Shown here: positions 13,718-63,133 of the stretch, piece by piece
How the letters are laid out: the number at the start of each line of letters is the position of its first letter
Numbering within the stretch: position 1 is the first letter of the stretch
Notes under the pieces: model-generated
Database searches by the model: none
What the model was told of the DNA's origin: nothing
The model's input: only the letters and a program-made list of their open reading frames with translations
Program-made: the position numbers and the translations under genes
Origin: a virus
Taxonomy: Duplodnaviria > Caudoviricetes
DNA: 64,000 bases
Virus record (IMG/VR): IMGVR_UViG_3300021376_000006
Direction: 5' to 3' (one strand)

Positions 13718-14083
13718 TTAAATTGCTATACGTTGTTGTCCGGCACGCCGCATTTCGCCGCGCATGATTGTTTTCATTACCAATGTGTCATTTATTTTGG
13801 CAACAGGCACTGTGATATCTGTTTCTAAATCAACCACATGAATTGCTACACCTTCGGGTAAATCTTTTAAAAATTTATGCCTTTTCAACAACAGCTTGCT
13901 AAAAAAATCTGCAACCTCGGCAATGCCGATAGGTTCGGTGTTTCTGGGATCGTTAATACGATCAACAAAATGTGTGGTAATTTTTACCGGTATATTGTAT
14001 GGTACGTATCTGGTGTTTAACACCTGGGTATAGTGCTTGGCCAGTTCAGCGTTGTTTTCTGTGAGAAATTCTTGCAAACGCAT
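13718..14083 (-). CDS. hypothetical protein with MRLQEFLTE N-terminus
   Basis: shared N-terminal motif; HFVDRINDPRN. Confidence 0.6.
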   Translation of the reverse strand: MRLQEFLTENNAELAKHYTQVLNTRYVPYNIPVKITTHFVDRINDPRNTEPIGIAEVADFFSKLLLKRHKFLKDLPEGVAIHVVDLETDITVPVAKINDTLVMKTIMRGEMRRAGQQRIAI

Positions 14084-16200
14084 TATGTTTTAATAATGAA
14101 GTTGATAGCCAGGTACGGAGGTAAGTTTTGATTTGTGCCGCTGACACCTGCAGAGTTTATTGTTACGCCGGTGCTGGCATAATCAGTCCAATTATAAAAA
14201 CTAGCATCTGTACCGGCGTCTGGACCTTCCCCAATCCATGGTTCATTTGGTCTAGCTTGATTAGGGGTGTTGCTAAGAACGGTGGTACTAGTTGGATTGC
14301 GTTCCCATGCTGCCGGTACCTCTGGGTCACCAGCATTAAGATAATCATTTATACCATAAAACAGAGCCCCACTCACAGGATCTCTTAATTGATGACGATG
14401 TGTAGGATCAGTGGTATTGTGACTGTGACTTACCACTACTGCATCTTTTGTGCCACCTGTGTTACCTATAGCATACAATGTGCCTGCGCCAACTGGCATT
14501 CTATTTCTGTAATCGGGCAGGTTAAATGTATTAACTCCGTCTCCGTTGCCAAAGGTGCTGCCAAGTATGGCAAACAATGCAGCATAGGTGGTTCTTGACA
14601 CTGCAAGGCCATTGCATAACAAGAATCCTGTAGGTGCAGACACTGTGGGCCACATCATCAAGCTGCCAGTAGGTACACTGTTGTTTTGTACAAAAGCAGT
14701 TGTAGCAACTGCGGTGTTAGATGTTCCCGGAGGCATAGTAGGAGTAAATATTTGTCCTCCTACGTGTAAATTTCCACCAAGACCTATACCTCCAGTAACA
14801 ACCAATGCACCGGTTGATGTTGATATAGCTGCTCTCGACGAACCTACAACTAGGTTGCCAGTCACTGCTAAATTTGCCGCGACCGAAGAATTGCCCGATA
14901 CAGTTAAATTGCCGCCCACTGAAGCAGTTAAACCAACATCCAATCTACCAGTTAAAGATACTGAATTGGCATGCATGGTATTCAACCGCATTCCTTGACT
15001 ACCAACATTTGAACTGATATTGGCGGTTGGGATCAAATCAGCACCCAAGTATATTGTTGCCACATTACTAACAGTAACAAAAGTATTTGCAGCATTTACA
15101 TTGCCTACTAAAATACTTTCTGAAAAAATGTTTTTAAAACGGTTAGTTGTATTTCCTAAGGTAAAAGTTACGTTTGCACTTGGGATAATATGGCCAAAGA
15201 AATTAGCAGTACCATTAACTAAACCCGACAGAATATCTACGTAATTTTTTGTAGCAAAAGTCAAAGCCGGAGATGAATTTGTTGGTTGTGCATATGCTTC
15301 GGCTAATCCTGTTTGATAATTGCCTCGTAAAAACGGTGTTTGCGTTCCGCCTGTTTTGAGACTTAATATAAAGTCGCGATTGTTAGTTTGATTGTGCAGC
15401 GTGACTGTGCCGCTAGTGACATTTGCAACAAAATCACTGGCTGCACCAAAAGTCAGGCCACCATCGTTTGTCAATGATAAAGATCCGTTAATAGATCCTG
15501 ACATGTTATTTCTTACGAATGTGTTACCAAACACAGCAACGTTGTTTACATATATAGATTGGGCAACTTCACTGTTACCCCAGAAAGTGTGTCCCAGTGT
15601 GCTGTTGAGATTGAGTCCCTTTTTTATAGTAGCAAAACCAGCTGTATCAGATGCAAAAGGACCGTCTTTGCTCCAGATACCCACTAATATATTGTCGATA
15701 AAAAATTTAATTACAACATAGGTAGTTGACGGTGGGGCATCTGTTACTGTGTCCGGGATAGCCCCTGAATTACCAGTGGCAAGTCTTGACAGAGGTCCTA
15801 CCAAGCGCCATTCAGTACCTGTATATATTTTAAGCTGTCCATTTGTAGTATCATACCACTGTTCACCAGTGTATGAGTTGGTCGGAGTTGATGCACTCAG
15901 AGTCATACCAGCCAAGGTTTTCCAAATGGCGTTGCCCGAGCCTTTAGTAGCAGCAACGTTAACACTTAAAAGTTTTGTAGTGCTGTTAAACCATAACTGT
16001 CCAGGAATAGGTGCAGACGGTTCTGTGGTTTTGGCAAAGTTTTCCATGAGTCTTACAAAGTTTTGATTTAAGAATAAACCATAACCTTTGTAATTTTTTC
16101 CTAATAGAACCAAGCTGGTATTGGCACTATCTGCGGTATTATCCAGCAAACCGCCCGCAATTAGATCTTCTCCGTTACTTAATGTAATATTATATGGCAT
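14083..16200 (-). CDS. tail fibre / baseplate fibre protein with tail-collar domain
   Basis: VLLGKNYKGYG...ENFA and GQLWFN/GEQWYD repeats, beta-rich repeats, collar VPTGSLMMW...GFLLCNG...TFNLPDYR, NLPPYLAINFIIK end. Confidence 0.85.
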   Translation of the reverse strand: MPYNITLSNGEDLIAGGLLDNTADSANTSLVLLGKNYKGYGLFLNQNFVRLMENFAKTTEPSAPIPGQLWFNSTTKLLSVNVAATKGSGNAIWKTLAGMTLSASTPTNSYTGEQWYDTTNGQLKIYTGTEWRLVGPLSRLATGNSGAIPDTVTDAPPSTTYVVIKFFIDNILVGIWSKDGPFASDTAGFATIKKGLNLNSTLGHTFWGNSEVAQSIYVNNVAVFGNTFVRNNMSGSINGSLSLTNDGGLTFGAASDFVANVTSGTVTLHNQTNNRDFILSLKTGGTQTPFLRGNYQTGLAEAYAQPTNSSPALTFATKNYVDILSGLVNGTANFFGHIIPSANVTFTLGNTTNRFKNIFSESILVGNVNAANTFVTVSNVATIYLGADLIPTANISSNVGSQGMRLNTMHANSVSLTGRLDVGLTASVGGNLTVSGNSSVAANLAVTGNLVVGSSRAAISTSTGALVVTGGIGLGGNLHVGGQIFTPTMPPGTSNTAVATTAFVQNNSVPTGSLMMWPTVSAPTGFLLCNGLAVSRTTYAALFAILGSTFGNGDGVNTFNLPDYRNRMPVGAGTLYAIGNTGGTKDAVVVSHSHNTTDPTHRHQLRDPVSGALFYGINDYLNAGDPEVPAAWERNPTSTTVLSNTPNQARPNEPWIGEGPDAGTDASFYNWTDYASTGVTINSAGVSGTNQNLPPYLAINFIIKT

Positions 16201-16219
16201 TTTTTGTTCTCACACCCTT

Positions 16220-16227
16220 TATTTATG
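16220..16227 (-). promoter_or_regulatory. T4-late-like promoter box
   Basis: CATAAATA about 20 nt upstream of the fibre gene start. Confidence 0.55.
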
Positions 16228-16251
16228 CTATTTTTACTGGGTATCAAGCAG

Positions 16252-18360
16252 TTACTTTTTACGCCCACTTTTCATATTTGCACACCAGTGGTACATTCGA
16301 CCACGCTCACCACCGGATTTTTTAGCTTTTTGACGCAAACTGGTCACTGATCCTGAACAACTAGCACCGGCACGTTTGACTCTACCCGGACGACTTTGGC
16401 CCTTGACTTTGCCATCGGCAAAGTTTTCATCTATTTGTTGGTTTAAAAACTGTTGTACAGCTTGCAAATGATCGCTGCCAGCTACGTATACACCTTGTTT
16501 TCTTGAGGCCAAAAACTTATCACGCAGGTCGTTAACAGACTTAGCCACACGACCCGCCCGGTTAGGATATTCTGCCCAGTTGTTGGGCCACATCAGTCGT
16601 TCGCCTAGCTCAAAAAACTGTCGCACATTGCGTTCTGTGGCTGGTGCTTGACTCATTCTAACAAAGTCATATTCACCTTCACTCACAGCCTGTAAAAACT
16701 TTGTCAGCGTTTCAGCATCAAACTTTCTGTCAGGGAAATAGTTGGTGCTGGGTTGTGTGCCGAGTATGCGATTAAAAATAGACACACTGGGGTCCGACCC
16801 AATCTTACCTTTTACAGTATCATTTTCTTTTATGTTAGAGAACAGAACATATAAGAATGCGGCCGGATAACCTTTGATTTTGTGCGATAGCAAATCATCA
16901 TCCCAACTACCTTGATAGCTATCAATGATTCCCGCAGTAAGTTTGCGATCCATACCGTTGCCCTCGTACCAGGCGCCGTGCTGTTTGGCAATTGCCTTTA
17001 CTCGTTCGGTATCAGAATCTGATAACTGTAACCGCTTGCCGTGTTCTTGTCCGACAATAGCAGTATCATTGCCTATGAAAAGCACCCGGCTGGTTTTGGC
17101 TTCTGTAACAGATTCTCCGCCGCCTCCATCACCTCCACTATCACCAGATTCCGAACCGTGAGCACCACTGCCGTAATAACCATAGCCAGGATACCAATAA
17201 CCGCCAAAATACCTGTTGCGGCGTCGACGCTTTTTGCCTTCCGCCATGTCTTGTTTGTTTTTGATATGACTGTATACCCGGCGTAGTTGTTCTGCGTCAA
17301 GATCGTCAAGATGCTTGTGCCCAGTGAGTTTTTCTGTCATACGCAAGAAACTGGGTTCATTGTCCCAGGCTATGCCACGACGGTTAGCAAGATCGTGTAT
17401 CATCTTCTTGGTTATTTTGCCTTCCGTCACACCCGGCTTCAATCGTGTCAGTTCATACACCACTTGATCGCCATGGTCTTCACTGTAGTCATCATAGCCC
17501 CATGCGGCCGCATATCTTTGAACCAACCTGTCATATAATTTTGCTCTACTCTCACTGTTTTGTCCCGGATCAACATCTTTTTTGGCTGAAAAAATCAAAC
17601 GCCATGGTTCGTGTTCTTTGACGAATTTTTGTATGGCATTTAAAACCGTGGCAAATATTCTTTGTGCATCACCTTCACCAGTAATTTCTTGACTGTTGTT
17701 TCTATAAAACTCAACTTGCCATTCGTTGTTCCCTTCGTGATTGAACATGATGCTTAGGTACTTACCATCCGGCAATCGTACTAATGTGTCGTAATCGCCA
17801 AACTCACTTTTCTGCTCGATTTCATGTGGGTAGGGCTGATTAAACGCTTCGTCTAGATCATCCTGGTATTCAGGATTACGAGCAAGTTTAACCGCTCTCT
17901 TATTACCTAACACCCCAGGATTGAACCATACTGTACTTTCAACATCCCAAGCTCGCATTATGGTGTCTTGCCAATTATTCTCTGCAGTATAATGTACAGC
18001 ATCATAGTCCTGGCCAATTGCTGCCCAAGGCATTTTGGTCAGCAACTCTATAGGATTCTTAAATTGTGCCCCGTATTGTTGTGCAACAGCAACAGCATCA
18101 CGGTCTGACCTGATAGTTAGTATCTTTGCCGCGGGAGCGACATCAAACAAAAATCCTGTATCTCCAATCCATTCGGGCATTTCTGCATCACACCAACGCA
18201 CCCATTCGCTGGTTATTCCTTCAGGAGTTTTGATAGCGGTGCTGGTCCATACTTTGACTTGTGGCTTTAATCCTAAGGACTCATTGACAGTGTTAGGATG
18301 CGGTGCATATAGCTGTGTGCCTAATCCTGCTGCCTCGGTTATAAACTCGTAAGCTCTCAT
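16252..18360 (-). CDS. multidomain protein with [10 protein letters not shown]-terminus (putative internal head polyprotein)
   Basis: modules separated by hydrophobic-X-E motifs; basic Cys-containing C-terminal module. Confidence 0.7.
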
Positions 18361-19277
18361 TTTTTATTTTTATGTTTTTCTGCATAAGCCAGTACACCCT
18401 CACGCACCCAAGCACCATCTATATGTGCCTGTGCCCTGGTGTGCAGTCTTTGTTTATTCAATGGACCATCACCATTCACATTCTGCCAAAACTCTGTCCA
18501 ATCTATCTCACCAAAGTCATAGTGACCACGATCATCATTCCACTTGAGATCAGGATCTGGTAACTGGACACCAAGGTATTCAGCCTGCGGCACAGTGGCA
18601 TCCACGAACTTCTGACGCAGTTCATCATTGGTGTGACGCTTGATGCCCCAGGCCATGGTCTTTTCTGTGTTAACACTCTCAGCGTCAGGTGGGCCAAACA
18701 TGGCTAGAGTTTTCCACCACCAGCGATCCACAGCCGCCTGCACCATGTCTCGTTGCTCATCAGTACCCTTCATCATGACCATAAGCTGATCATAGCCCTG
18801 GCGCTGATGAAAACTTTCTTCTTTACAGATGCGTATCATGGCACGGGCATATGGACCATAACTGCAACGACACAGGGGAATCTGATTCATGATGGCCGCA
18901 CCATCTACCAACCAACCTATCACTGCTTGATCAGCCCAGGTCACGGCAGGATAATTAAATATGCTGCTGTATTTGGCTTGTCCTGTGTGCAGTTCCGCTA
19001 ACATTTCTTCACGACTGATTCCCAAAGTCTCTGCGGCGCTATACAAATATATACCATGCCCGCCTTCATCCTGTACTTTGGCCAGTAGAATGGCCTTGCG
19101 TTTCAGTGTTGGTGCTCGAGTGATCCAACCGCCTTCTGGCAGCATGCCTACGATTTCACTGTGAGCATGTTGACTAATTTGTCTTATAAGAGTCTTGCGA
19201 TAGGCATCAGGCATCCAGTCCTGAGGTTCTATTTTAATTTCATTGGCAATCTTATAATCAAATTTTTCTTGGCTCAT
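18357..19277 (-). CDS. paaA: 1,2-phenylacetyl-CoA epoxidase catalytic subunit A
   Basis: [50 protein letters not shown] diiron motifs. Confidence 0.95.
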
Positions 19278-19435
19278 TTTACTATCTTAAATCGTGTACA
19301 TTTTGACTGAAATGGATACTCATTGTAAAATTCTGCCCAATTTCTACAATCTTCTAATGTATTATACTGTTTTTTTACAAATAACACAGGAGGGTCACTT
19401 GATAAAATATACACAGTTAAGATATACACAAACAT
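19274..19435 (-). CDS. 53-aa Cys-x15-Cys mini-protein (not in ORF track)
   Basis: [53 protein letters not shown]; AAGGAG upstream; ATGA overlap with paaA. Confidence 0.65.
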
Positions 19436-19453
19436 CTCAAATGTGCTCCTTGT

Positions 19454-19645
19454 TCAAGTGGTAGGTGGGGGTTCATAATTTTCTACCCATGTACACCTTA
19501 ACGTGGCCACTTTAGGCTGTTCAAGCAAATGGGTGGCTTCCGCCCAGCATTCCTGCATGGTAGGAAAACCACCCATTTCAACTGATTCGAGTCCAGGTGT
19601 GCCTGTGTTCAGCGTGATAAAAAAGTAGACATATAGTACATACAT
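19454..19645 (-). CDS. Cys-x17-Cys mini-protein
   Basis: hydrophobic N-terminus, GFPTMQEC-x17-C; paralog of 25960..26145. Confidence 0.65.
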   Translation of the reverse strand: MYVLYVYFFITLNTGTPGLESVEMGGFPTMQECWAEATHLLEQPKVATLRCTWVENYEPPPTT

Positions 19646-19800
19646 GCCTATATTTATCAGAAATAGCGTTTGTAATTAGTTCAAACCAATCACTCCTTTA
19701 CCCCAGTGCATCTGGTACTAATTTTTGTGTAAAATATATGTAAAACATATGGCCATACCCAGCACTAAAAATATCATGGCTTTTTTTAATTCACTCATTG

Positions 19801-19983
19801 TTATTCCTTTGTTTCAAAACATATCATGTATTGTGTGCCGCAGTATGGACAACTGGCCATACCGTTTTCGTTAAAATCTAAAAATACCTTGGGATGCGCG
19901 GACCAAAATTCCATAGCAGGGTTTGGACAAAACGCAGGAAGTTTTTTTTGGTTTATTTGGACAGGCTTGGCAGGCGGTTTCAT
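19801..19983 (-). CDS. zinc-finger (CHCC-type) protein
   Basis: CP...HPKVFL...CPYCG. Confidence 0.8.
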   Translation of the reverse strand: MKPPAKPVQINQKKLPAFCPNPAMEFWSAHPKVFLDFNENGMASCPYCGTQYMICFETKE

Positions 19984-20399
19984 TAAGTATCATCTGTTTT
20001 GTCATGGCTGGGATAGTTATGGCTGGCGTATCTTATCAAGACCACACTGAAAGTGATTACAAGTGTAGATCCCGCGACTGCAATCATTTGCCAAATGTCA
20101 ATGGCAGCGTGACTCATGATATCTACCATGTGGCGAGTGAGTGCTGTAATTGCTATGTATAATAAAAATCTTACGGGCATATGATTGGTATTAAAATAAA
20201 TTCCAACCATAGCTCCAATTTCCAAGTATATAAACAATAAAAGCAAATCACTTACACCAGCATGATGTTTAGAAAACAGTTCAAAAAAAGTCCACGATGC
20301 TGCCCACACTGTGGCAGCACCAATTCCAAACAGTGCCAGCTTATGGAAAGTTGCTACCAGTGTGTTGGCAACATGATTGATTTTTTCACTGTCAACCAT
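19983..20399 (-). CDS. phosphate-starvation-inducible PsiE-family membrane protein
   Basis: LLLFIYLEIGAMVGIYF...PVRFLLYIAITALTR. Confidence 0.8.
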   Translation of the reverse strand: MVDSEKINHVANTLVATFHKLALFGIGAATVWAASWTFFELFSKHHAGVSDLLLLFIYLEIGAMVGIYFNTNHMPVRFLLYIAITALTRHMVDIMSHAAIDIWQMIAVAGSTLVITFSVVLIRYASHNYPSHDKTDDT

Positions 20400-20408
20400 A
20401 CGTGCTTA

Positions 20409-20882
20409 TCACCACATGTCACGAATTTGTTTTTTCTTGCGCTCGGCCACTACCCAGTTTCCACGCAGAGCAAAATACAAACCGCCAACCCAGAGAGAGA
20501 AATGTAAATAATCCGTCAGCATAAAAGTTATCAAACTCTCGGGTTTCAACACAACCCAAATTACACCAGTGGCCACACAACACATCACAATGCCGCTGAA
20601 TCTGGTCAGTGCATCACCGAACTCTGCAGCATAGGGCCAGTCACGGATTTTGTACAATGTGGCTGCACCACCCACTAGCAGTCCCACTCCTGCCAGTACT
20701 TCACCATAAGCAACAAACCACCACACCAAGGGACCAAGTCCAAATGCTGCTCCGCCTGCGGGATCAAAGGGCAGTTTGCTCAAGCCCTGTGTGATAAAGA
20801 TCAAGGCCAGAGGAATCCTTAACAACAGATTGCTCCAAGCAAAGTCAGGAAGCATGTGCCAATAATTTTTTACCGATATCAT
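20409..20882 (-). CDS. DoxX-family membrane protein
   Basis: LLLRIPLALIFITQGLSK...GEVLAGVGLLVG. Confidence 0.7.
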   Translation of the reverse strand: MISVKNYWHMLPDFAWSNLLLRIPLALIFITQGLSKLPFDPAGGAAFGLGPLVWWFVAYGEVLAGVGLLVGGAATLYKIRDWPYAAEFGDALTRFSGIVMCCVATGVIWVVLKPESLITFMLTDYLHFSLWVGGLYFALRGNWVVAERKKKQIRDMW

Positions 20883-20893
20883 ATATTACTCCA

Positions 20894-21064
20894 TTAGTTT
20901 TGTGTAAAAGCTGAATTTGTTACTAGTGTGCAACGAACTGATTTTACTCTTGGATCCTTCAATGCCTCAACTTTAACTGCTTCACACTGTTCCTGTAGCG
21001 CATAGGCAGCTACCCTGTGATCATTGCCTGGATTGAACAGCCACGCAATGTACATTATCCACAT
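20894..21064 (-). CDS. 56-aa Cys-x17-Cys mini-protein (not in ORF track)
   Basis: MWIMYIAWLFNPGNDHRVAAYALQEQCEAVKVEALKDPRVKSVRCTLVTNSAFTQN. Confidence 0.6.
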   Translation of the reverse strand: MWIMYIAWLFNPGNDHRVAAYALQEQCEAVKVEALKDPRVKSVRCTLVTNSAFTQN

Positions 21065-21364
21065 TTATTTCACAGTCATTATGTATTGTGCCAGCAGTTT
21101 TGCATCTGCCTCTGACACATGGGGTTGCTTGGGCATGGCCATGGCGCCCCAGACTCCACCGCCACCATTTCGAATTTTTCCAGCGAGATACTCTACTGCA
21201 TCTTTTCTATCTTTGTATTTGGCTGCTACTTCTTTCAAAGATGGACCTACTACCCTGTTCTGTGCCTGATGACAACCAATACAACCAGACTTTCTAAACA
21301 ATGCGTCATCTGCCTGAACAGGCATTGATAATATAAATAATACTGTAAACATTACATTTTTCAT
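21065..21364 (-). CDS. class I cytochrome c (c551/c552-like)
   Basis: signal peptide, CIGCH heme motif, VGPS, WG...MP axial Met. Confidence 0.9.
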   Translation of the reverse strand: MKNVMFTVLFILSMPVQADDALFRKSGCIGCHQAQNRVVGPSLKEVAAKYKDRKDAVEYLAGKIRNGGGGVWGAMAMPKQPHVSEADAKLLAQYIMTVK

Positions 21365-21393
21365 GAACTTCCTTTCACATTAAAAATTTAAAC

Positions 21394-21576
21394 ATGCGTT
21401 TTTTATATCTAATTTTATCACTGTTACCTGCTCCATTATTTTTACTACTTGGTATCTTCAACCTCTTTCATTCACCCTCTCATTGTGGTTCATTTCAATA
21501 TGAAATGACTACGATGTGGTTTGTCATGTTTTTTGCACATCTTTTACCTTGGTTAAAAAAAATCAAAACTTCATAG
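21394..21576 (+). CDS. small membrane protein
   Basis: two hydrophobic segments; only plus-strand ORF in the cassette. Confidence 0.5.
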   Translation: MRFLYLILSLLPAPLFLLLGIFNLFHSPSHCGSFQYEMTTMWFVMFFAHLLPWLKKIKTS

Positions 21577-23905: not shown

Positions 23906-23906
23906 G

Positions 23907-24284: not shown

Positions 24285-24320
24285 AAAAAAATTTTAAAAT
24301 GATTTTTACAACACCAATAA

Positions 24321-24349
24321 ATTGTACGATAATAATTGAATTAGGTCAA
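24321..24349 (-). promoter_or_regulatory. sigma70-type promoter for the 24284-lldD-nth-coq7 run
   Basis: TTGACC-N17-TACAAT. Confidence 0.7.
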
Positions 24350-24369
24350 GCAATCTGGCTGTTCTTTGA

Positions 24370-25113
24370 TTATTCTATCATATAATGGTTGAAACTAAAC
24401 CATCCTTGCCATTCTGATCCCATGATAGAATATGATTGTTCGGCAACCTCTGAAGAAATTCGTTGTTTCATTCGATTGTGTGACGCCGATTCAATCATAA
24501 GTTGAACTTGACAGCTTCTTTCCATAGTTATGAACCACCAAGCAGCAGCATCTACTGTGCTACCAACAGTAAGTAAACCATGATTTTGCAGTATCGCTGC
24601 TTTGTTATTGCCCAATGCTTTGGCTATCCTTTGTCCCTCTTCCAGTTCAACTGCAACTCCACCAAAATCATGATACACAGAATGGTCATTGAAAAAAGCA
24701 CAAGCATCCTGTGTGACTATATCTAAACGTCGACCAAACACGCTCCAAGCGCGACCATAAATGCTGTGTGTATGTGCTGCTGCCATCACATCAGGTCTGG
24801 CATGGTGAACTGCATTGTGAATAGAAAATCCTGCCAGATTAATCTGTCCATTGCCATTGATAACTGAACCAGTTTCGTCAACCTGTATGAGATTACTCAC
24901 ACACACTTGACTGAAGTGACAGCCAAAAGGATTCATCCAAAATGTATTTGGAAATTCAGGATCTCGAGCAGTTATATGACCAGCCACGCCTTCATCAAAT
25001 CCAAACTTACTAAAAAGTCTAAATGCTGCGGCCAAACGCTGTTTTATATGCGATCGATGTTGATCAACATCAGAAAATACTGGTGGATTAGGCAAGTTCA
25101 TAAGATTGCTCAT
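24370..25113 (-). CDS. class II aldolase/adducin family protein
   Basis: GHITARDP, HTHS, LQNHGLLTVG metal-binding motifs. Confidence 0.9.
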   Translation of the reverse strand: MSNLMNLPNPPVFSDVDQHRSHIKQRLAAAFRLFSKFGFDEGVAGHITARDPEFPNTFWMNPFGCHFSQVCVSNLIQVDETGSVINGNGQINLAGFSIHNAVHHARPDVMAAAHTHSIYGRAWSVFGRRLDIVTQDACAFFNDHSVYHDFGGVAVELEEGQRIAKALGNNKAAILQNHGLLTVGSTVDAAAWWFITMERSCQVQLMIESASHNRMKQRISSEVAEQSYSIMGSEWQGWFSFNHYMIE

Positions 25114-25149
25114 GGATTTAAACCTTTACAATTTTTTTTTACATAAAAC

Positions 25150-25365
25150 TTAACTTTGACCAAATATTCGTCTTATTACATAATTTGTATGACGATTGTC
25201 TTGGTCAAGATAACAGATTTCACACAATGCTAATTTCGGCCCATTATGCCCATCAAGAAATTTATGACAGGCAGCACAGTGAATAAACTTTTCGACAATT
25301 TGCCAGGCTTCTGTGTGCTGTGGTACTAGTTGCCAATCTTTATTCTCATGCAGCCAATAGCTCAT
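25150..25365 (-). CDS. small CxxC...CxxC zinc-finger-like protein
   Basis: CAAC and CEIC; no signal peptide. Confidence 0.45.
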   Translation of the reverse strand: MSYWLHENKDWQLVPQHTEAWQIVEKFIHCAACHKFLDGHNGPKLALCEICYLDQDNRHTNYVIRRIFGQS

Positions 25366-25628
25366 GCACCGCCCCATTCATTTTTAGCCACCTCACTTGC
25401 TTTAGGTGTGTCTAATCTAGAATTTGAATTTGGTCTAATTTTTTTAAGATTTTTTTGAAATTGTTTTTTACGCCTGCGTTTTTCTAATGTGTCTATTACA
25501 AATCCGGGTAACACATGCAACACTATGTACACTCCAAACAGTATGCCCAGCACTGGTCCCCAAAATGCCATGAACGCCCATTTCAGTTTATCTATCAAAA
25601 AATATGTCTCCAACAAAAGGTATGACAA
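25362..25628 (-). CDS. small membrane protein with basic tail
   Basis: hydrophobic segment followed by KRRRKK. Confidence 0.45.
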   Translation of the reverse strand: MSYLLLETYFLIDKLKWAFMAFWGPVLGILFGVYIVLHVLPGFVIDTLEKRRRKKQFQKNLKKIRPNSNSRLDTPKASEVAKNEWGGA

Positions 25629-25683
25629 TCATTAGGCCAATGACAGTGCCAAAAAAACCAAGTATTTCAATCATAAGTTAATC

Positions 25684-25944
25684 TCAATATGTTTCAGCAT
25701 TCGGATTATACCCACGCATGTTCCATTGATACAGCTTTTGTTCGTGCCAATAAGTCTTAAAAGCTTCTTTTGTTTTAAACTTTTTCTGAAACTCCTCTGT
25801 CACAGATAAACAACTCCACAAGTCTTGACCACCCATTTCACCTTTCATGAACAAAGTGTCACAGTCCCAATAGTATTTTTCAAGTTGTTTATATGGCAAC
25901 TTAGCAGCATTCAAAGCAAGAGCAAGAGTTATTGATAGTAACAT
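25684..25944 (-). CDS. small exported protein with two Cys
   Basis: signal peptide; YWDCD...SCLSV. Confidence 0.55.
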   Translation of the reverse strand: MLLSITLALALNAAKLPYKQLEKYYWDCDTLFMKGEMGGQDLWSCLSVTEEFQKKFKTKEAFKTYWHEQKLYQWNMRGYNPNAETY

Positions 25945-25959
25945 ATAACTTATTTTCTG

Positions 25960-26145
25960 TCAAGTTTTATTTTGATATCCGTCTTTCCAAGTGCATAGAA
26001 TATCCGAAACATTAGGATTTTTCATTTGTATTCGAGATTCTGCCAAGCATTCTGACGTGGTAGGATATCCTGCAATGGTCACAGGTTTCAACCCTACCAA
26101 ACCAGAATTAGTGGTGATCAACATATACACGATCAACACATACAT
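25960..26145 (-). CDS. Cys-x17-Cys mini-protein
   Basis: start moved to MYVLIVY; GYPTTSEC-x17-C; paralog of 19454..19645. Confidence 0.65.
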   Translation of the reverse strand: MYVLIVYMLITTNSGLVGLKPVTIAGYPTTSECLAESRIQMKNPNVSDILCTWKDGYQNKT

Positions 26146-26149
26146 GACC

Positions 26150-27349
26150 TTATCTCTTGAACTTGGCCGCTTCTTCTGACCCGCCTGTGGCATTGCCCTT
26201 GCTGTAGCTATGAGCACCCACACCTGCCAGTTGACCATTCTGCACCACCAGATATTCATTGCGTATTGGGCGACCTTCAAAATGGCATTCTAACACTTCA
26301 CGCACACCTGCGGCATAGCGTGTTTGTGCTGACAAACTGGTGCCAGAAATATGCGGTGTCATGCCATGCCAGGGCATTGAACGCCAGGGATGATCCTGTG
26401 GTGCGGGCTGCGGGAACCATACATCGCCAGCATAACCTGCTAGATGTCCACTTTCCAATGCACGGGCCACAGCATCACGATCGCATACCTTGCCACGTGC
26501 AGTGTTCACAATATAGCTGCCACGCTTCATCTTGGCAATCATGGCATCATTAAACAAGTGTTCTGTTTCTGGATGAAGTGGGCAGTTGATGGTCACAACA
26601 TCCACCACACGAACCATGCTTTCTACGCTGTCATGCCAGGTAAGGTTTAGTTCTTGTTCAACATGTGCAGGCAAACGATGACGATCAAAATAGTGTAGAT
26701 GCACATCAAATGGTTTGAGTAATCTCAATGCTCGTAATCCAATACGACCTGCTGCCACTGTGCCTACATGCATGCCTTCGATATCATAACTGCGACTTAC
26801 ACAGTCAGCAATGTTCCAGCCACCATCTACAACCTGTTTGTAACTGGGAATGTAATTGCGTACCAGACTCAACATCTGCATCACAATGTGTTCTGCCACA
26901 CTATTACTATTACAGTATGTGATTTCTGCTACAGTAATGCCACGATCCATGGCTGCTTGTAAGTCCACATGATCTGAACCAATGCCTGCTGTGAGTGCCA
27001 GTTTAAGTTTTGGTGCTCGGGCAATTCTTTCTGCTGTAAGATAAGCTGGCCAGAACGGCTGACTGATAATCACTTCAGCATCATGTAGATTGTTCTCCAA
27101 TCTACTGTTGGGTCCATCTTTGTCTGAAGTCACAACAAATTCATGACCTAAATTTTCTAAAAATTTTCTTAGACCTAAACCACCTGTAACACTGCCCAGT
27201 AGTTCACCTGGAGAGAAATCCACAGCATGTGGACTTGGAACGGTCTGTCCATCTGGGTAGTGCGTGATTGTGGGAATGCTGTCTCTTGCGTAACTTGTTG
27301 GATGACCATTTACCGGATCATCATATAAAACACATAGAACTTTAGCCAT
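26150..27349 (-). CDS. fdh: NAD-dependent formate dehydrogenase (metal-independent)
   Basis: MAKVLCVLYDDP, GIGSDHVDL, NSVAEH, AAGRIG, YFDRH, NTARG, GDVWFPQP, TPHISG. Confidence 0.96.
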   Translation of the reverse strand: MAKVLCVLYDDPVNGHPTSYARDSIPTITHYPDGQTVPSPHAVDFSPGELLGSVTGGLGLRKFLENLGHEFVVTSDKDGPNSRLENNLHDAEVIISQPFWPAYLTAERIARAPKLKLALTAGIGSDHVDLQAAMDRGITVAEITYCNSNSVAEHIVMQMLSLVRNYIPSYKQVVDGGWNIADCVSRSYDIEGMHVGTVAAGRIGLRALRLLKPFDVHLHYFDRHRLPAHVEQELNLTWHDSVESMVRVVDVVTINCPLHPETEHLFNDAMIAKMKRGSYIVNTARGKVCDRDAVARALESGHLAGYAGDVWFPQPAPQDHPWRSMPWHGMTPHISGTSLSAQTRYAAGVREVLECHFEGRPIRNEYLVVQNGQLAGVGAHSYSKGNATGGSEEAAKFKR

Positions 27350-27361
27350 TGAGCCTCCTTG

Positions 27362-27390
27362 AATAGATTTATTATACTATTTAATCTATT
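27362..27390. promoter_or_regulatory. 8-bp inverted repeat upstream of fdh, overlapping a TTAAATA box
   Basis: AATAGATT-N13-AATCTATT. Confidence 0.4.
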
Positions 27391-27397
27391 ATATGAT

Positions 27398-28078
27398 CTA
27401 CAAATTTCTTTCCCAGATCACAAAAGGATCATTGACCACAATAGTGCCGTCGGGTCTGGCCATGTAATTGCCACTATGTAGATCCACTGAAAAATTGTGT
27501 TTGCGAGCAAATCTTGAAACTTCGTATACTGTCTTTAGTAGGCCATCTGCTCGTTCGGGCCCACCCAATAGGTCAATGACTTCTTGTACATCTTCAAAAT
27601 ACTTGGGATTGTAACCTGGTGAGTAATAATCTTCGGCACTGGCAAACTCAGCATAACTTTTTATTTTGTTATACGCTGCTTGTAAATTGCCTCGGCCTAT
27701 CTGTTTGGTCACTTGATCAATCTGTGCTACTAAATCTCTAACAGTGTTGGGTAATTCTTCTAGTGTTTCCATTCTGGCCTGAATATATCTTTTACCTTGA
27801 AATTCAAAACTTTCAAATCCTGAGAATCTGGGCAAGTGCGGATTGTTGCGATGCTTGTTGCAATAGTTAATCCAATCGACAAACATTCGTTGATCGGGAC
27901 TGAAATCTTGTACACCTTTACGATAACCAAACACAATATACACTTGACCGTTGGGTTCTAAATATGCATGTTTGTCTATACCACCGCCTAAATAAGTATA
28001 ACCTTTATCTGCTAATACATTTGAGATGCCTCTATGTATTGATCCGGCCATTTCTGTGGTGAAGTCCGCTGCTCTCAT
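27398..28078 (-). CDS. protein kinase-like domain protein with MRAADFTTE N-terminus
   Basis: LGGG glycine loop, DLHSGNYM catalytic loop, NDP metal site. Confidence 0.75.
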   Translation of the reverse strand: MRAADFTTEMAGSIHRGISNVLADKGYTYLGGGIDKHAYLEPNGQVYIVFGYRKGVQDFSPDQRMFVDWINYCNKHRNNPHLPRFSGFESFEFQGKRYIQARMETLEELPNTVRDLVAQIDQVTKQIGRGNLQAAYNKIKSYAEFASAEDYYSPGYNPKYFEDVQEVIDLLGGPERADGLLKTVYEVSRFARKHNFSVDLHSGNYMARPDGTIVVNDPFVIWERNL

Positions 28079-30597
28079 CTTGCCGGCACCACCATAAATT
28101 CTCCACTGCCTAATAGGCCGTTCTGTCTCAACCAATTGGCTGCATACTGATTGGCTTCGCCTTGATTGCTACGACCAACGAAACTGTAAACTTCACGGTC
28201 GTTACGATCTAATACCAACCAGCGTGTATTACCTGGTGGTAGGCTTTCTGTGCCTTGTACCTGTTGTCTTGCCTGCATTCTTGGTCTGACATAGATAGGA
28301 TCATCAAATCCAGTTTGCTGTTGCCATCTGGCTGCATGTCTTTCAGCATCTGCTACCGCATTACCAATACCACTAACCACACCGACAACCTCGCCGGTGT
28401 TTCTACTGACGAATTCCCAAACTCCGGTAAACTCTTGATCACGGCTGGGTGTGGATCCTATATCCACAGTCTCTGGTGGATCTGGCAGTCTTGACCTTGC
28501 TACAGGTTCGGCTTCAATTCTATAAACCGTATATCCGGCCCGTTGTAAATTAGTTCTCATTACATCCACGGCAGCATCTGCATTACGGGCTGGAACAGTA
28601 ACAGCGTCATTTCTAACTTCGCCGTCGTAGGTCGCTGTGTAAGACACTCTAAAATTCTGTACTTGCGTCTGACCAGGTGGTTCTCTCCCTACAGGTTCAG
28701 GTTCGCCTAGTCTTGCTCTCACCGTAGAGGGCATTGTTTCTCTGCCGGTGTAGTCAGGATCAAGAGCCACGTTGATATCTTCGCTGGCCGCGTTGGCAAA
28801 TATGTCAGGGTGTCTTCGCATGGCCACTTGTTTGGCTTGAAACTCACTCATGGCTTTTACATATACATATACACCTTGCGAATTTCCTTCAACATACACA
28901 CGATAAAACTTATCACTTAACTCGTTCATATCTGCCGTAGTAGCAGCTCGTAAGGGCTGTGCCCGCCAACCATGTTCTTGTGCCCATTCTTCTATGCTAT
29001 AACTACCAATGCTCAATTGCCATTTTTTAATGGCTTCTACAAATGCATCCAACTGAGTCTTGCCTATCACTTCCGTGCCTTGACTTTGATATGGACTCGA
29101 AGCACTGCCGGTAACTTTCCAGACCAATAATATATCTTTGGCACCTTTGGTAAGTTTTTCAACACCACGCTTGCCCTGTATCTGTCTAACAAATGCTTTT
29201 AATGCGCTTTGTGGCAATTCGCCTGCTGCATATTTTGCAAAGTATTGAATAGTATCGTTGTCTTGGCCTTGTGATAGTGTTTTGTATAACTTTTTGTAGT
29301 ATTCTTGTTTGAATTCCTCGGGCTTGGTGGCCACATCTAAGGCCACTACTGCACGCAACATAGTGTTCTTTACATCGTCAAGATTGTCTCGTCCCAACCA
29401 GTCGCCGCCGGGACTACGGAATTCAACCCAATCACCTCTGTTGTTGATACTCGAATATTTTTGTGTTTCGCCGGTGTGCAAGATCTTGCTGGCAATATCA
29501 CTTAGTCCATTTTGAAACTGACGCATCATTTCAGACACACGCTCAGGCTCATTACGGCCTTTTTGTATGATATTTTTCAATATGCTTTTGCAGTAGGTGT
29601 TGCCTTCACGGCCAAATTGTTCTAGAATGTAGTTGTCTCCTAAGAACATGGCCAATTTAACAAAGTCTAATTTGTCTTGGTTAGGCACACTCACATTCAT
29701 ATGCAGTCCGGTACTGCTGTTGGTATATGCACCTGTGCGTTCGGCCCATTGAGCCACAGAATCAATGTCATCTAACATTTCTGATATAGTTAATGGAGGG
29801 CTAACAAATTCTAATCCGCCATCACCGGGTTCGTCGCCGTGTAGGCTTGAATCAGGTTCCACTACATAATGTCCTGGTCGTCTAGTGGCACCGTGATAAC
29901 TAGAGCTGGCATTCACAGGACGACCAATGGCATTGCTAAAATCGCCGGCAACATCGTCGATACTGACACTGCCCCTTCTACCACCGTAATCTGGTTCAGT
30001 CCAGTATGGCCATTCTAAATTATATTCATTGCCAAAGTCAGACATTGAATTGATACCTTGCCGATCTAACCATTCTTCAAACTTTGAGTCAAGGTCTTCG
30101 TTGTATTCGTCAATTATTTGATCGCGTATGCTATCTTGGTTTTCATCAAGATAATCTTCCAAAGCTTTTCTTAGTTCCTCAGGAGAATCGTAATCATCTT
30201 GATTGATATTATCAAGAGCTATTTCTCGTGCTCTTGCTACTCCGTCGGCCGAGTTTATAAAATTACCTTGATCTTCGTCGACCCAGGTGTAAAAATCATC
30301 ATTCAAGTTATCAATGGCTCTTTGTATTTCTCTTGTGCTGCTGCCCATTTCGCCGCCACGGAAGAAATCCATGATATCTCTTGTCCAACCTTGCCCGGTA
30401 GGAAACCTTTCGTCGGCATCGTAGTCAGGTTCTGATTCAAATTCATCTTCGTCATCTGTATCTGCGTTGGGTACAATCAATTCAAATTCCATGCCCACTC
30501 TGGCATCAATATTCTTGGACATCTTGGCCAGATTGCCTGGGCTCATATTGAGCTCAAACAATTCATCTTCGGTCAGTTCAAATTCTCTGGCTCTCAT
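28075..30597 (-). CDS. putative amidoligase (COOH-NH2 ligase type 2) with C-terminal extensions
   Basis: GMEFE, EPDSS, GLEFVSP, TGLHMNVS, KYSSIN, VEFRSPG; MRAREFELTE N-terminus. Confidence 0.8.
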   Translation of the reverse strand: MRAREFELTEDELFELNMSPGNLAKMSKNIDARVGMEFELIVPNADTDDEDEFESEPDYDADERFPTGQGWTRDIMDFFRGGEMGSSTREIQRAIDNLNDDFYTWVDEDQGNFINSADGVARAREIALDNINQDDYDSPEELRKALEDYLDENQDSIRDQIIDEYNEDLDSKFEEWLDRQGINSMSDFGNEYNLEWPYWTEPDYGGRRGSVSIDDVAGDFSNAIGRPVNASSSYHGATRRPGHYVVEPDSSLHGDEPGDGGLEFVSPPLTISEMLDDIDSVAQWAERTGAYTNSSTGLHMNVSVPNQDKLDFVKLAMFLGDNYILEQFGREGNTYCKSILKNIIQKGRNEPERVSEMMRQFQNGLSDIASKILHTGETQKYSSINNRGDWVEFRSPGGDWLGRDNLDDVKNTMLRAVVALDVATKPEEFKQEYYKKLYKTLSQGQDNDTIQYFAKYAAGELPQSALKAFVRQIQGKRGVEKLTKGAKDILLVWKVTGSASSPYQSQGTEVIGKTQLDAFVEAIKKWQLSIGSYSIEEWAQEHGWRAQPLRAATTADMNELSDKFYRVYVEGNSQGVYVYVKAMSEFQAKQVAMRRHPDIFANAASEDINVALDPDYTGRETMPSTVRARLGEPEPVGREPPGQTQVQNFRVSYTATYDGEVRNDAVTVPARNADAAVDVMRTNLQRAGYTVYRIEAEPVARSRLPDPPETVDIGSTPSRDQEFTGVWEFVSRNTGEVVGVVSGIGNAVADAERHAARWQQQTGFDDPIYVRPRMQARQQVQGTESLPPGNTRWLVLDRNDREVYSFVGRSNQGEANQYAANWLRQNGLLGSGEFMVVPAR

Positions 30598-31838
30598 TCA
30601 ATGATCTCCGGATTGTCTTTGCCATACAATTTCATAAGGTAGCCGGCCACTGCATCTGCTTCCTGTTCAATGGGAGATCCTGGATATGCTTGATCACCGT
30701 GTACTCTATTGTCTTCGTGTTGTTTTCTATGCACCAATTCATGTGCCACAGTACGCATGATATCAATCAAATTCCTATTACCAGTGTATACCCACATGAT
30801 GTCATCATTGTCGTCGTAGTATCCGGTTCTGTGTTGATCTGGACCTTCTTTGGCATCTTGGAATCTAATTCGTGGTAATTCTTGTTCAATGTTCAATTTA
30901 CGCACACACCATTGGATAAAATCACGCAGTTGATCTTCGTGTTCTTGATAGGTGCTTTCATTTAATGACAATAAATTATAATCCTGTTCAATTTTAGTCA
31001 AGCAAAATATTGCATCATCCACAGTGGCACCTACTCTATACATAAAATCTGGACCTGTATCAAAATAGGGACGACCATCTTCAATGCTGCCTTGTTTGAC
31101 TAGAACATCGCTATTAGTAATTGGAACGAACATAATCGCATCTAGTGTATTTTCATCTCTTTTTCTGGTGCATCCAAAACCGCCTTTTAGATTTGGAAGT
31201 GGTTTAGTCTTGAATCCTAACTTTGCTAGTTCAGTGGTTATGATTTTCCGAAACTTAAAAAAATCACCTGATGGTGTTGATTCTGACCCATCGTCATCAC
31301 CAGCCGGGCCTACAAATTCTTTTAAAGATTTATCGCCATCACCAGTTACTGATTTTTTTTGTATCAAGTGACTGCGGTGTAGATCATTGTTGGCTCCTAA
31401 TTTTTGAGCAATGTGTTGCCAGGCTCCGCCGCTGGCATCATCTTGTACAGTCAATGTTCTTACCGTGGGTTGATCTCTAAATTGATCTTCGAGCCTTTTA
31501 TAAATTTCATCGAGCATCTTGGTTACGATGCCAGAAAATTTGCCTGCATGAGCATCCAATACATTGATTACTAGTTCGGGTAAATCATATCCAACACTGA
31601 CTTGTAAGTAGAAGTGACCCTTGGGATCTGCTAGGCCATCATAATATTCTTGATTCTTGACATACTGACGCTTGGTGCTGGCAAACACAGGATTGTATCC
31701 ATAACTGTCGCCGGTGTACAATCTTGCCTTTGGATAGGCCGAGGACCATACATTCTCAATTATCCGTTTAACTATACCTGTGCTGTATTCTCCAGCAGTT
31801 TGTTCGGTATTTTCAGTTATAAAATCTCTAGCTCGCAT
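30594..31838 (-). CDS. multidomain protein with C-terminal HExxH metallopeptidase-like domain
   Basis: TVAHELVH and E.EAD; MRARDFITE N-terminus. Confidence 0.75.
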   Translation of the reverse strand: MRARDFITENTEQTAGEYSTGIVKRIIENVWSSAYPKARLYTGDSYGYNPVFASTKRQYVKNQEYYDGLADPKGHFYLQVSVGYDLPELVINVLDAHAGKFSGIVTKMLDEIYKRLEDQFRDQPTVRTLTVQDDASGGAWQHIAQKLGANNDLHRSHLIQKKSVTGDGDKSLKEFVGPAGDDDGSESTPSGDFFKFRKIITTELAKLGFKTKPLPNLKGGFGCTRKRDENTLDAIMFVPITNSDVLVKQGSIEDGRPYFDTGPDFMYRVGATVDDAIFCLTKIEQDYNLLSLNESTYQEHEDQLRDFIQWCVRKLNIEQELPRIRFQDAKEGPDQHRTGYYDDNDDIMWVYTGNRNLIDIMRTVAHELVHRKQHEDNRVHGDQAYPGSPIEQEADAVAGYLMKLYGKDNPEIIE

Positions 31839-32481
31839 CTTTGTTGTCCTGTGGTCCGGCAATCATTCGACCACGGTCCCGGCTCTGTATGTTTTGTGGC
31901 GTATGCTCACGCCGACCTTTGACAATTTCAAAAGCTCTACGCAATCCCTTCGCAACCACGTCTAAGCTATCTTCATCGGCTTGATACTTGATACCAATTC
32001 CGCCCGACTGTTCCCATTCTGTTAGCACACTATTACGATCATCAACCAGGATATTGGGTGTACCATCTGCTTGTTTTGCATACTTGCCCTTGCGTCCAGT
32101 GATGCGGATCACTCTAGGCTGCGGATCCAAGTTTTCTGCGATCCAGGCTCGCTTCATGGCTTCTGAGTTTTGATTGTCGCCGCGTAGTGGGCTGGAGCAG
32201 ATGTTGTAGTAGCCAAACACTTGAACTACCATAGCTACCAATCTATCTGCACTAGGGAATTTGGGCAGTCTTTGAAAGAAATCAGTGCCGCGCATCTGTG
32301 CAATTACAGGTTCTCGCAGTTCTGGGGGAATGTTTCTGTAGTCTGCTCGCCCGCTTTTGACATCAGCGGGAACGCCAGCAAGTTTGGCATATTCTGAAAA
32401 AAAGTCTGCTAGCACGCCGTCCATGTCCAGGAATATTTCTGGCCGGCCGTGAGGTTGTTGTTCTAGTTCATAAAGTCGCAT
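31828..32481 (-). CDS. 5'(3')-deoxyribonucleotidase (HAD/NT5C family)
   Basis: FLDMDGVLADF, CSSP, ILVDD; CATAAATA upstream. Confidence 0.85.
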   Translation of the reverse strand: MRLYELEQQPHGRPEIFLDMDGVLADFFSEYAKLAGVPADVKSGRADYRNIPPELREPVIAQMRGTDFFQRLPKFPSADRLVAMVVQVFGYYNICSSPLRGDNQNSEAMKRAWIAENLDPQPRVIRITGRKGKYAKQADGTPNILVDDRNSVLTEWEQSGGIGIKYQADEDSLDVVAKGLRRAFEIVKGRREHTPQNIQSRDRGRMIAGPQDNKDAS

Positions 32482-32488
32482 TTTGTAT

Positions 32489-57686: not shown

Positions 57687-57694
57687 TATTTATA
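57687..57694 (-). promoter_or_regulatory. T4-late-type promoter
   Basis: exact TATAAATA upstream of the dnaK leader. Confidence 0.6.
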
Positions 57695-58210: not shown

Positions 58211-58214
58211 AAGA

Positions 58215-60195: not shown

Positions 60196-60203
60196 TATTT
60201 ATA
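60196..60203 (-). promoter_or_regulatory. T4-late-type promoter
   Basis: exact TATAAATA 6 nt upstream of the ATG at 60189. Confidence 0.6.
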
Positions 60204-63104: not shown

Positions 63105-63133
63105 GGCTGCCTCCTATTTTTAGTATTTATAGC

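Follow-up and report, generated by a model that had tools for sequence, protein, structure and literature searches.

Why should proteins of unrelated function begin with almost the same nine residues? The question is raised by a stretch of 64,000 nucleotides (hereafter the window) from IMG/VR virus record IMGVR_UViG_3300021376_000006 (Duplodnaviria; Caudoviricetes), whose genes lie nearly all on the minus strand. A preliminary description of this DNA had listed six proteins with near-identical N-termini between positions 13,718 and 32,481. All six are indeed minus-strand open reading frames (ORFs) with the coordinates and N-termini that it gave. Five of them form a tight family with starts at 14083, 18360, 28078, 30597 and 31838 and the pattern M-R-(A/L)-x-(E/D)-F-(I/L/T)-x-E, whereas the sixth (MRLYELE) is a weak member. 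The explanation that we favor, and hold to be likely from the comparisons below, is that this tag is a capsid-targeting propeptide of the T4 type and that a prohead protease would process a split set of "polyvalent" effectors, which are described below. By analogy with T4, a kinase-like enzyme, a ligase-type enzyme and a small protease, along with other modules, probably enter the host together with the phage DNA. It is the match of the tag to the head-loading tag of T4 that makes this delivery probable.

A weight matrix was built from 81 independent, non-redundant IMG/VR leaders. The search pattern imposed Glu9 of these leaders. The positions that it left open are conserved as well: Ala3 is present in 55 of the 81, and residue 7 is Ile, Val or Leu in 76. 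Together the leaders give the consensus M-R-A-x-E-F-[IVL]-x-E, in which position 4 is variable. On this matrix the five window leaders scored 23.6, 22.7, 21.6, 14.8 and 7.1, the lowest being the leader with a one-residue insertion (MRAREFELTE). Every other ATG of the window, in any frame, scored -2.9 or less, and the sixth tag, MRLYELE, scored -3.3. With the amino-acid frequencies of the genome, the pattern M[RK]xx[ED][FL]xxE is expected 0.039 times among 624 ATG positions (Poisson P(≥4) = 1e-7). When the window and three relatives were searched in six frames (864 kb), the looser pattern M[RK]xx[ED][FL]x(1-3)E was found at 19 ORF N-termini and at one internal site. A matrix score of at least 6 was reached by 22 ATGs in the same DNA, all N-terminal and none internal.

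In the T4 record, the internal proteins IPII and IPIII start with MKTYQEFIAE followed by Ala, and IPI starts with MKTFKEF. Aligned with T4, the leader has its Phe, its aliphatic residue and its last Glu in register with F7, I8 and E10. Closest to MKTYQEFIAE is the leader MRAYEFITE of a 702-aa protein (18334..18360, minus strand; matrix score 23.6). The first ten residues of the T4 proteins, the capsid targeting sequence (CTS), are enough to package foreign proteins; targeting depends mainly on residues 4 and 7 and cutting on residues 8 and 10, and Asp at position 10 stops the cutting and leaves targeting intact (PMC9026906). The prohead protease, gene product (gp) 21, cleaves at the motif L/I-x-E, and CTS-like leaders are found on further internal proteins of T-even phages (PMC9026906). 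The preliminary description had already read the tag as a T4-type leader. This reading is now supported by the likeness to the CTS of IPII and IPIII, by the gp21 and head module of the relatives, by the [I/L/V]-x-E ending and by the junctions that several modules share.

The junctions are best seen in the 702-aa protein (16252..18360, minus strand), a predicted multi-module precursor with PHROG and Pfam matches. Its leader is followed by module 1 (residues 10-171), the DUF6934-like module 2, which starts AFNQPY (172-313), and a short module (314-374). The C-terminal half consists of a segment that is in turn K/R-rich, Y/G-rich and acidic with Gly (375-420), then module 4 (421-645) and a basic C-terminal peptide (646-702). 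The junctions read DLDE/A (171/172), DMAE/G (374/375), SVTE/A (420/421) and QIDE/N (645/646), where the slash between letters marks the predicted cut; below, P1 is the last residue before it and P3 the third last. Module 2 (17422..17847, minus strand) lies behind the internal junction D-L-D-E/A. In other contigs it begins at the same residue, either directly behind a leader (MRAHEFIAE/AFDQPY and three more leaders) or internally behind V-A-E, V-V-E, V-D-E, V-T-E or F-A-E. Ten unique contexts were compared, 4 behind an N-terminal leader and 6 internal. In all ten, Glu precedes the module and P3 is hydrophobic.

Two more modules behave in the same way. The kinase-like module, which starts M-A-G-x-I-H, lies behind the tag in the window and internally behind L-D-E, V-N-E or V-T-E in L003, L086, G002 and L085. 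As for the zincin module (S-T-F/Y-Q-E-H-E), the window (S-L-N-E/S) and L085 have it internally, whereas in G002 and L003 it stands alone directly behind MRAREFVVE or MRAQEFITE. Over the three modules, P1 is Glu in 19/19 unique contexts and P3 is hydrophobic in 18, the exception being the Thr of a T-T-E tag in the window; the background frequency of [LIVMF]-x-E is 0.016. Because the same modules occur either behind the tag or behind an internal [VIL]-x-E, the end of the tag seems to be the same cut site as the joint within the longer proteins. As far as sequence comparison can speak, this interchangeability of leader and joint appears to be the strongest argument for head targeting followed by cutting with the prohead protease.

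The tagged proteins of the window are not a random set. They are pieces of what is one giant multidomain protein in relatives, of the kind called polyvalent, which was defined in phages and conjugative elements by Iyer, Burroughs, Anand, de Souza and Aravind in 2017 (PMC5512222). In G001 and G003 a nucleotidyltransferase (NTase)-like domain, the zincin and the amidoligase are fused in chains of 1373-1408 aa, and other relatives have chains of up to 2350 aa. The single chain of the relatives is split in the window into coupled genes, each with its own tag. The units of the 702-aa protein are four separate tagged ORFs in G002, and separate ORFs with their own leaders also occur in L003 and L086. 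In the G001 and G003 fusions an internal segment, R-E-F-A-L-L-E/D, aligns with the leader of the 840-aa window protein. Several effector domains with a zincin as hub are found together in the relatives and, in part, in the 414-aa and 702-aa proteins of the window; the amidoligase, the kinase-like protein and the nucleotidase are separate genes there.

Some related proteins were seen beside these. The fused proteins of G001 (156651-160772, 1373 aa) and G003 (287163-291389, 1408 aa) start with MNIHELDS or MNLHELDS and contain a Pol-beta-nucleotidyltransferase-like N-terminus (GS...DIDLH), then the zincin and the amidoligase. The 1791-aa representative P0028 has the same start and ends in the basic NFADG peptide treated below. 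Vibrio phage nt-1, a cultured phage of the KVP40 group, has a module 2 homologue in ORF252 (L001:3512-4432; 34% identity over 119 aa), and ORF253 directly upstream (L001:2922-3512) has the CTS-like start MIEFLTE. Residues 375-420 of the 702-aa protein (window 17101-17238) form a low-complexity unit of a K/R run, a Tyr/Gly/Pro-rich stretch and an acidic Gly/Ser stretch ending in V-T-E. Such a K/R, Tyr/Gly/Pro and acidic unit is also present in L158, L170, L206, L215, L224, L225 and L258, and many further contigs have it immediately behind the leader (MRAxEFITE/RKKKRRK...YFFPGY...).

Modules clearly fuse and split at the tag, and this would also be expected if the likeness belonged to the nucleic acid. 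The shared 5' ends could then be a translation start enhancer, the boundary of a recombination cassette or the trace of a recent duplication, and the peptide would have no role. The polymorphic internal-protein loci of T-even phages reportedly shuffle at a shared leader (Repoila et al. 1994), which counts for such a reading. Over codons 2-9, however, pairwise identity is 0.67 at the first codon position, 0.77 at the second and 0.29 at the third, the last being that of random sequence, and only 10/30 codon pairs for the same residue use the identical codon. The random third positions and the differing codons show that selection acts on the peptide rather than on a DNA repeat. In addition, the signature from P3 to P1 recurs deep within long ORFs, away from translation starts, and the tag persists between genomes with only ~50% identity in their proteins. 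We rejected the DNA-level readings on codon usage and internal joints, and they are the least probable of those considered here, with hardly any chance of being right.

The last unit of the 702-aa precursor is a peptide of 57 aa (16255..16425, minus strand) that starts with NFADGK behind Q-I-D-E/N; its isoelectric point is 11.4 and it has 16 Lys and Arg residues. A search of IMG/VR with the 702-aa protein found at least 593 relatives, and most of the 80 loci retained matched in the C-terminal region only. Exactly one copy of the peptide is present in each of G001, G002 and G003. Of 67 unique contexts in IMG/VR, all have Glu at P1, and 61 have Val, Ile, Leu, Met or Phe at P3. When the peptide was compared with 1.84 billion representative proteins, 1,480 clusters matched, 845 of them at E ≤ 1e-10. 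Among the 150 matches listed, identity over the peptide is 74-93%, yet it is attached to differing carrier proteins. In the 144 carriers examined, Glu is at P1 in 144/144 and Val, Leu, Ile, Met or Phe at P3 in 127/144; the peptide is at the extreme C-terminus in 132/144, and 65/144 have a strict N-terminal leader as well. The peptide had no match in cultured phages, no Pfam family and no Atlas name. We read it as a putative conserved head-internal basic peptide that is released from a variable carrier, a function suggested by its composition.

A wider proposal can be built on these data, and we offer it tentatively, as possible but rather doubtful. The clade, freshwater T4-related phages of ~350 kb and up to 525 kb, would build its injected arsenal as an exchangeable kit, together with an essential DNA-associated head peptide (NFADGK) that is carried in by the tag of its carrier. 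In such a kit any module could be its own gene or a link in a chain, since one protease motif would serve both as the end of the address and as the joint. Each genome would have one near-invariant 57-residue peptide, always as the cleavable C-terminal tail of a fast-changing carrier and unable to be made alone.

The source of the window appears to be an uncultured giant lake phage of the T4-related jumbo group, judging from its relatives. A protein identical to the 840-aa one is present in Joint Genome Institute (JGI) samples 3300021424, 3300020183, 3300020179 and 3300020196 (contigs of 13-34 kb) and in one contig of 0.2-1 Mb. A megablast of the window against cultured phages gave no match, and an exact 40-mer was absent from IMG/VR and from the metagenome contig set. 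G002 (IMG/VR, 108 kb) is syntenic with the window and shares 58/111 proteins at 68% identity; it is a 29% complete fragment that contains no head genes. G001 (343 kb) and G003 (349 kb) each have ~30/111 window proteins in common at ~50% identity. The capsid protein of the clade shares 62-67% identity with its counterparts in Vibrio phage 2.275.O, Sinorhizobium phage Phosso, PA5oct, XaC1 and E. coli phage A4, which belong to the T4-related jumbo group.

Syntenic and family-level IMG/VR relatives (260-525 kb) encode a protease of the T4 gp21 type and gp23. Peptidase_S77 (T4 gp21) and the Gp23 capsid protein are present in G003, G004 and G005, and the head genes of G003 are in the order portal, two small core proteins, protease, scaffold and capsid protein. 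In 22 further fragments (11-62% complete), Peptidase_S77 was found in 3. Records that were found by the leader DNA pattern alone, and thus independently of homology to window proteins, contain it in 7/9 cases, including 4/4 of those rated ≥90% complete (340-525 kb). A gp21 is encoded in every tag-bearing record rated ≥90% complete that keeps head genes.

The protease of G003 (84690-85328) is 31% identical to T4 gp21 and retains the blocks GE..HP, GVSSRG and D.V..PSAP, which we take to hold the catalytic His, Ser and Asp of the T4 enzyme. In the capsid proteins of the clade, Y-L-K-E/N or S-L-M-E/N aligns with S-F-L-T-E/A of T4 gp23 at residue 65, where F-L-T-E/A is the known maturation site. 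The proteases of the clade start with Y-L-R-E or Y-L-K-E, and a core protein starts with MNRFEQLIE. Since the same motif stands at the predicted maturation sites of capsid protein and protease, the last three residues of the leader are the motif that the protease of the clade is expected to cut.

The proposed course of events is as follows. The nine residues M-R-A-x-E-F-[I/V/L]-x-E would attach to the scaffolding core during prohead assembly, so that the protein behind them is enclosed. A prohead protease of the gp21 family would then cut behind the final Glu, as the motif and the comparative data suggest. The same protease would cut the [V/I/L]-x-E junctions within multi-module precursors, yielding separate mature proteins and, from the 702-aa precursor, the 57-residue basic peptide. 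On infection the products would exit the head along with the DNA and would act in the new host cell, by analogy with T4's internal proteins and with Alt. Delivered in this way would be four enzymes (a protein-kinase-like one, an amidoligase, a minimal zincin peptidase and a deoxyribonucleotidase) and modules to which no function is assigned.

The cutting enzyme could also be the set's own zincin. The tag would then be a processing site only, and effectors of the polyvalent type, packaged by another route or not packaged at all, would be cut at [VIL]-x-E by the zincin, either ahead of packaging or once inside the host. Both the set and the fused versions of 1373-2350 aa include a conserved minimal zincin, and autoproteolysis by the metallopeptidase (MPTase) domain was proposed for polyvalent proteins (PMC5512222). 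The leader of the amidoligase aligns with the internal R-E-F-A-L-L-E of the fused forms, so the whole E-F-x-x-E could be a junction signal. Proteases of the gp21 type, however, are known to cut behind Glu where P3 is hydrophobic or small (PMC9026906, PMC5694885, PMC10052503). The same motif is predicted at the maturation sites of the capsid protein and the protease in the clade. We know of no zincin with such a preference for Glu and P3. Furthermore, M-R-A before E-F is conserved at true N-termini only, and a pure cut site would not need M-R-A; many tag carriers also have no zincin nearby. Processing by the zincin without head targeting is thus unlikely, though it keeps more weight than the other alternatives.

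Several further points count against head targeting and prohead-protease cutting as the explanation. The Tyr4 that determines targeting in T4 has no conserved counterpart in the leaders of the clade, and the tag of the nucleotidase, MRLYELE, has no [IVL]-x-E ending. The invariant Glu may partly be a residue of the modules themselves. The gp21 and the head module were seen in relatives, so this support comes from the relatives; extension past the end of the window added 3.7 kb and did not reach the protease gene of the phage itself. G001 is rated 99% complete yet has no gp21, gp23 or portal; we attribute this to the end of its contig in fiber genes, which flank the head module in G003. The leader DNA pattern gave 0-2 matches each in PA5oct, Vibrio 2.275.O, XaC1, A4 and Phosso, the nearest cultured phages by capsid protein, and in Atu_ph07. 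As the tag is absent from the nearest cultured phages, their virion proteomes are no proxy for those of the clade. Finally, the 121-aa tagged gene is coupled to a tail-fiber gene and could serve the tail.

The identities that the preliminary description had given to the cargo (an amidoligase, a nucleotidase, a kinase, a metallopeptidase and one multidomain protein) hold, on the evidence of Pfam, PHROG, PDB, Foldseek and HExxH with fold. Four of these proteins are encoded in one block, from 32481 down to 27398. Consecutive genes of the block overlap by 4-11 nt, and the four are therefore translationally coupled. On the contigs with the identical 840-aa protein, the JGI gene calls give products of 217, 414, 840 and 226 aa, the same as in the window, which is consistent with the assigned start codons.

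The first gene of the block (31828..32481, minus strand) encodes a 217-aa 5'(3')-deoxyribonucleotidase with the degenerate tag MRLYELE. It matches phrog_2643 (E = 1e-18) and NT5C in the PDB (E = 2e-4), and its HAD motif, DMDGV, is at residue 19. In relatives the nucleotidase forms fusions, either with the zincin module (L061, L085, L035) or with the NFADG peptide (L043, L051, L054, L057, L060), and in L057 it starts with MRAKEFIS. Because of these fusions and the L057 start, the nucleotidase belongs to the same system despite its degenerate tag.

The second gene (30594..31838, minus strand) encodes the 414-aa protein with leader MRARDFITE and a C-terminal minimal zincin (residues 295-414, HELVH at 366) behind S-L-N-E/S. 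HExxH and a downstream Glu are invariant in 24 homologues of the zincin module. The AlphaFold2 (AF2) model of the last 125 residues, with a predicted local distance difference test score (pLDDT) of 87, consists of a helix, three strands, the HExxH helix and the Glu helix. Its top folds in the PDB are jannalysin, abylysin and selecase, which are minimal gluzincins, and IrrE and Wss1; the Pfam metallopeptidase matches of the protein are all below the curated cut-offs.

The third gene (28075..30597, minus strand) encodes the 840-aa protein with the 10-residue leader MRAREFELTE. A glutamine-synthetase-like Amidoligase_2 domain (PF12224, E = 9e-10, 39 bits against a cut-off of 22 bits) covers residues 213-360 and is followed by a long C-terminal region. 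Cultured phage Atu_ph07 (490 kb) has a homologue of this amidoligase (AUZ94978.1, L002:3662-5164, 30% identity) near its portal gene, from which a single gene separates it. That homologue starts with MRWQDISSKKLTE, possibly a distant form of the tag; neither its accession nor its coordinates were found in one supplementary file on Atu_ph07.

The fourth gene (27398..28078, minus strand) encodes the 226-aa protein with leader MRAADFTTE, whose mature part would begin at MAGSIH. It contains DLHSGN, a motif like that of a catalytic loop, at residue 199 and NDPF at residue 216, and D199, N204 and D217 are invariant in an alignment of homologues. It matches phrog_15752, a kinase of the T7 0.7 type (E = 5e-8). 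Its AF2 model (pLDDT 75) predicts disorder for the leader (pLDDT 29, residues 1-11). The top Foldseek matches of the model in the PDB are all kinases, with probability ~1 and a template modeling (TM) score of only 0.3-0.4. Protein-kinase-like is a safe description. Sequence searches of the PDB found nothing for this protein or for the 702-aa protein, whose gene is coupled to a PaaA-like gene.

The remaining tagged gene (13718..14083, minus strand) encodes the 121-aa protein with leader MRLQEFLTE (matrix score 21.6), which matches phrog_14518, a family with no function assigned. Its homologues in G002, L085 and L003 retain the leader. The start of the gene overlaps the stop of the tail-collar fiber gene at 14083-16200, and the two are coupled. 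This coupling would suit a tag that sends proteins elsewhere, for example to timed degradation, to the tail or baseplate, or to export after a Tat (twin-arginine translocation) or Sec step. Twin-arginine-like segments lie behind the tag in L159 and L039, which also fits such a destination. A hydrophobic signal segment is missing from all six window proteins (0/6), and a destination other than the head would explain neither why the tag matches the T4 CTS nor why it occurs together with gp21. We regard it as very unlikely. In the tagged proteins of L159 and L039 the segment that resembles a twin-arginine signal follows directly after the final Glu of the tag (IDRRGFLGALGAG and ITRRDFLRGAGAV, respectively). 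If the tag were removed within the head, a Tat signal would be exposed on the injected protein, and export to the host periplasm would be possible.

Two radical S-adenosylmethionine (SAM) genes border the tagged genes. One with an N-terminal SPASM/twitch-type domain (32489-33586, SPASM/radical SAM) is directly upstream of the tagged block, and a B12-radical SAM gene (12215-13711) is directly downstream of the 121-aa gene. The tag could thus be a recognition sequence for a modifying enzyme such as a radical SAM protein, of which these phages have many, like the leaders of ribosomally synthesized and post-translationally modified peptides (RiPPs). This adjacency is not conserved, since no such gene is beside the block in G002, the closest relative. 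A homologue of any radical SAM gene of the window was found in only 22/162 tag-bearing loci (mean 11 kb), and any ORF of ≥200 aa with CxxxCxxC in only 36/162. The tag itself contains no Cys, no Ser/Thr-rich segment and no other typical modification core. We rejected this reading on the linkage in 22/162 loci and the adjacency lost in G002; it has a still smaller chance than a destination outside the head.

Other features of the window were noted in passing. The sequence ATAAATA, with 7/8 bases of the T4 late-promoter box TATAAATA, occurs 11-63 nt upstream of gene blocks on the minus strand (32486-32492, 19651-19657, 16220-16226, 60196-60202, 63124-63130 and 57687-57693), including the tagged operon, the block that leads to the 702-aa gene, the fiber gene and dnaK. 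For the blocks at 32481, 19645 and 16200 the distance is 11-26 nt. In total, ATAAATA occurs 14 times on the minus strand of the window, about as often as base composition predicts, and it was not used as evidence. A small gene at ~57974-58243 (minus strand), whose product on the identical JGI contig L270 has Pfam Ribosomal_S21, adjoins dnaK (55744-57630), hsp20 (55230-55667) and clpS (54870-55181). Just past the end of the window (L270:2734-3700), genes for a PAAR-motif protein and for a cell-wall hydrolase (Hydrolase_2) are found beside those for the ribonucleotide reductase small subunit and glutaredoxin.

If head targeting with prohead-protease processing is correct, head tagging of the T4 kind is not restricted to three small anti-restriction proteins and would be a general, evolvable way to deliver full-size enzymes in abundant uncultured phages. 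Two unconnected literatures, on T4 head assembly (CTS and gp21) and on computationally defined polyvalent effectors, would be joined through prohead-protease joints. The tag gives a simple sequence rule to predict which phage proteins reach the host first, and the single-copy basic peptide is a candidate new component of the head interior. Nine residues with a defined cut site might also be a compact tool to load proteins into T4-type capsids. Judged by titles and abstracts, none of the listed papers of one library that mention the "capsid targeting sequence" is on uncultured or jumbo T4-related phages with such enzyme tags, and the term is absent from an overview of jumbo phages (PMC7824862).

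The closest known system is that of T4 IPI, IPII and IPIII (Mullaney & Black 1996; PMC9026906, PMC3012670). In both cases a short acidic N-terminal propeptide is common to unrelated proteins, M-(K/R)-x-x-(x)-E-F-(I/L)-x-E matches MKTYQEFIAE, and the L/I-x-E cut motif is at the end. Relatives of the phage have gp21, gp22-like, gp23 and portal genes, as T4 does, and the tagged genes are scattered away from the head module. The tag has 9 residues here compared with 10 in T4. The putative cargo here is made up of 25-94 kDa enzymes and multi-module precursors with internal junctions, in contrast to the small basic anti-restriction proteins of T4. One precursor per genome here has a conserved C-terminal basic peptide, and the clade is known from sequence alone.

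Large enzymes as head cargo have two precedents, foreign proteins fused to the CTS and T4 Alt, an ADP-ribosyltransferase that is packaged in the head and cut by gp21 at both ends (PMC9026906). Like the putative cargo here, Alt is a large enzyme that is delivered with the DNA and acts at once on the host. It has no sequence relation to the kinase-like protein, amidoligase, zincin and nucleotidase of the window. In phiKZ-like phages and SPN3US, many inner-head proteins are cut after Glu (S/A/G-x-E) by a gp21-related protease, and it is their propeptides that are believed to direct these proteins into the prohead (PMC5694885, PMC10052503). Those propeptides have 80-130 residues and do not form one shared short tag, and these phages belong to another lineage, with no gp22-type scaffold known.

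Compared with polyvalent proteins, the 1373-2350-aa chains of the relatives likewise join a Pol-beta-NTase-like N-terminus, a minimal zincin, an amidoligase and other modules, and the zincin core of helix, three strands, HExxH helix and Glu helix fits the description of the MPTase domain (PMC5512222). The word "amidoligase" is absent from the text of that paper. The chain of the window differs in being made of coupled, T4-tagged genes, with joints of the prohead-protease type instead of reliance on the zincin. Established before are thus the CTS principle, including that on polymorphic T-even internal proteins, enzyme cargo of the Alt type, the long propeptides of phiKZ and SPN3US, and polyvalent proteins. 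What appears to be new is full-size enzymes as cargo, polyvalent chains that are split or fused at joints of the prohead-protease type, and a universal C-terminal basic peptide. The principle is known, and here it is unusually modular.

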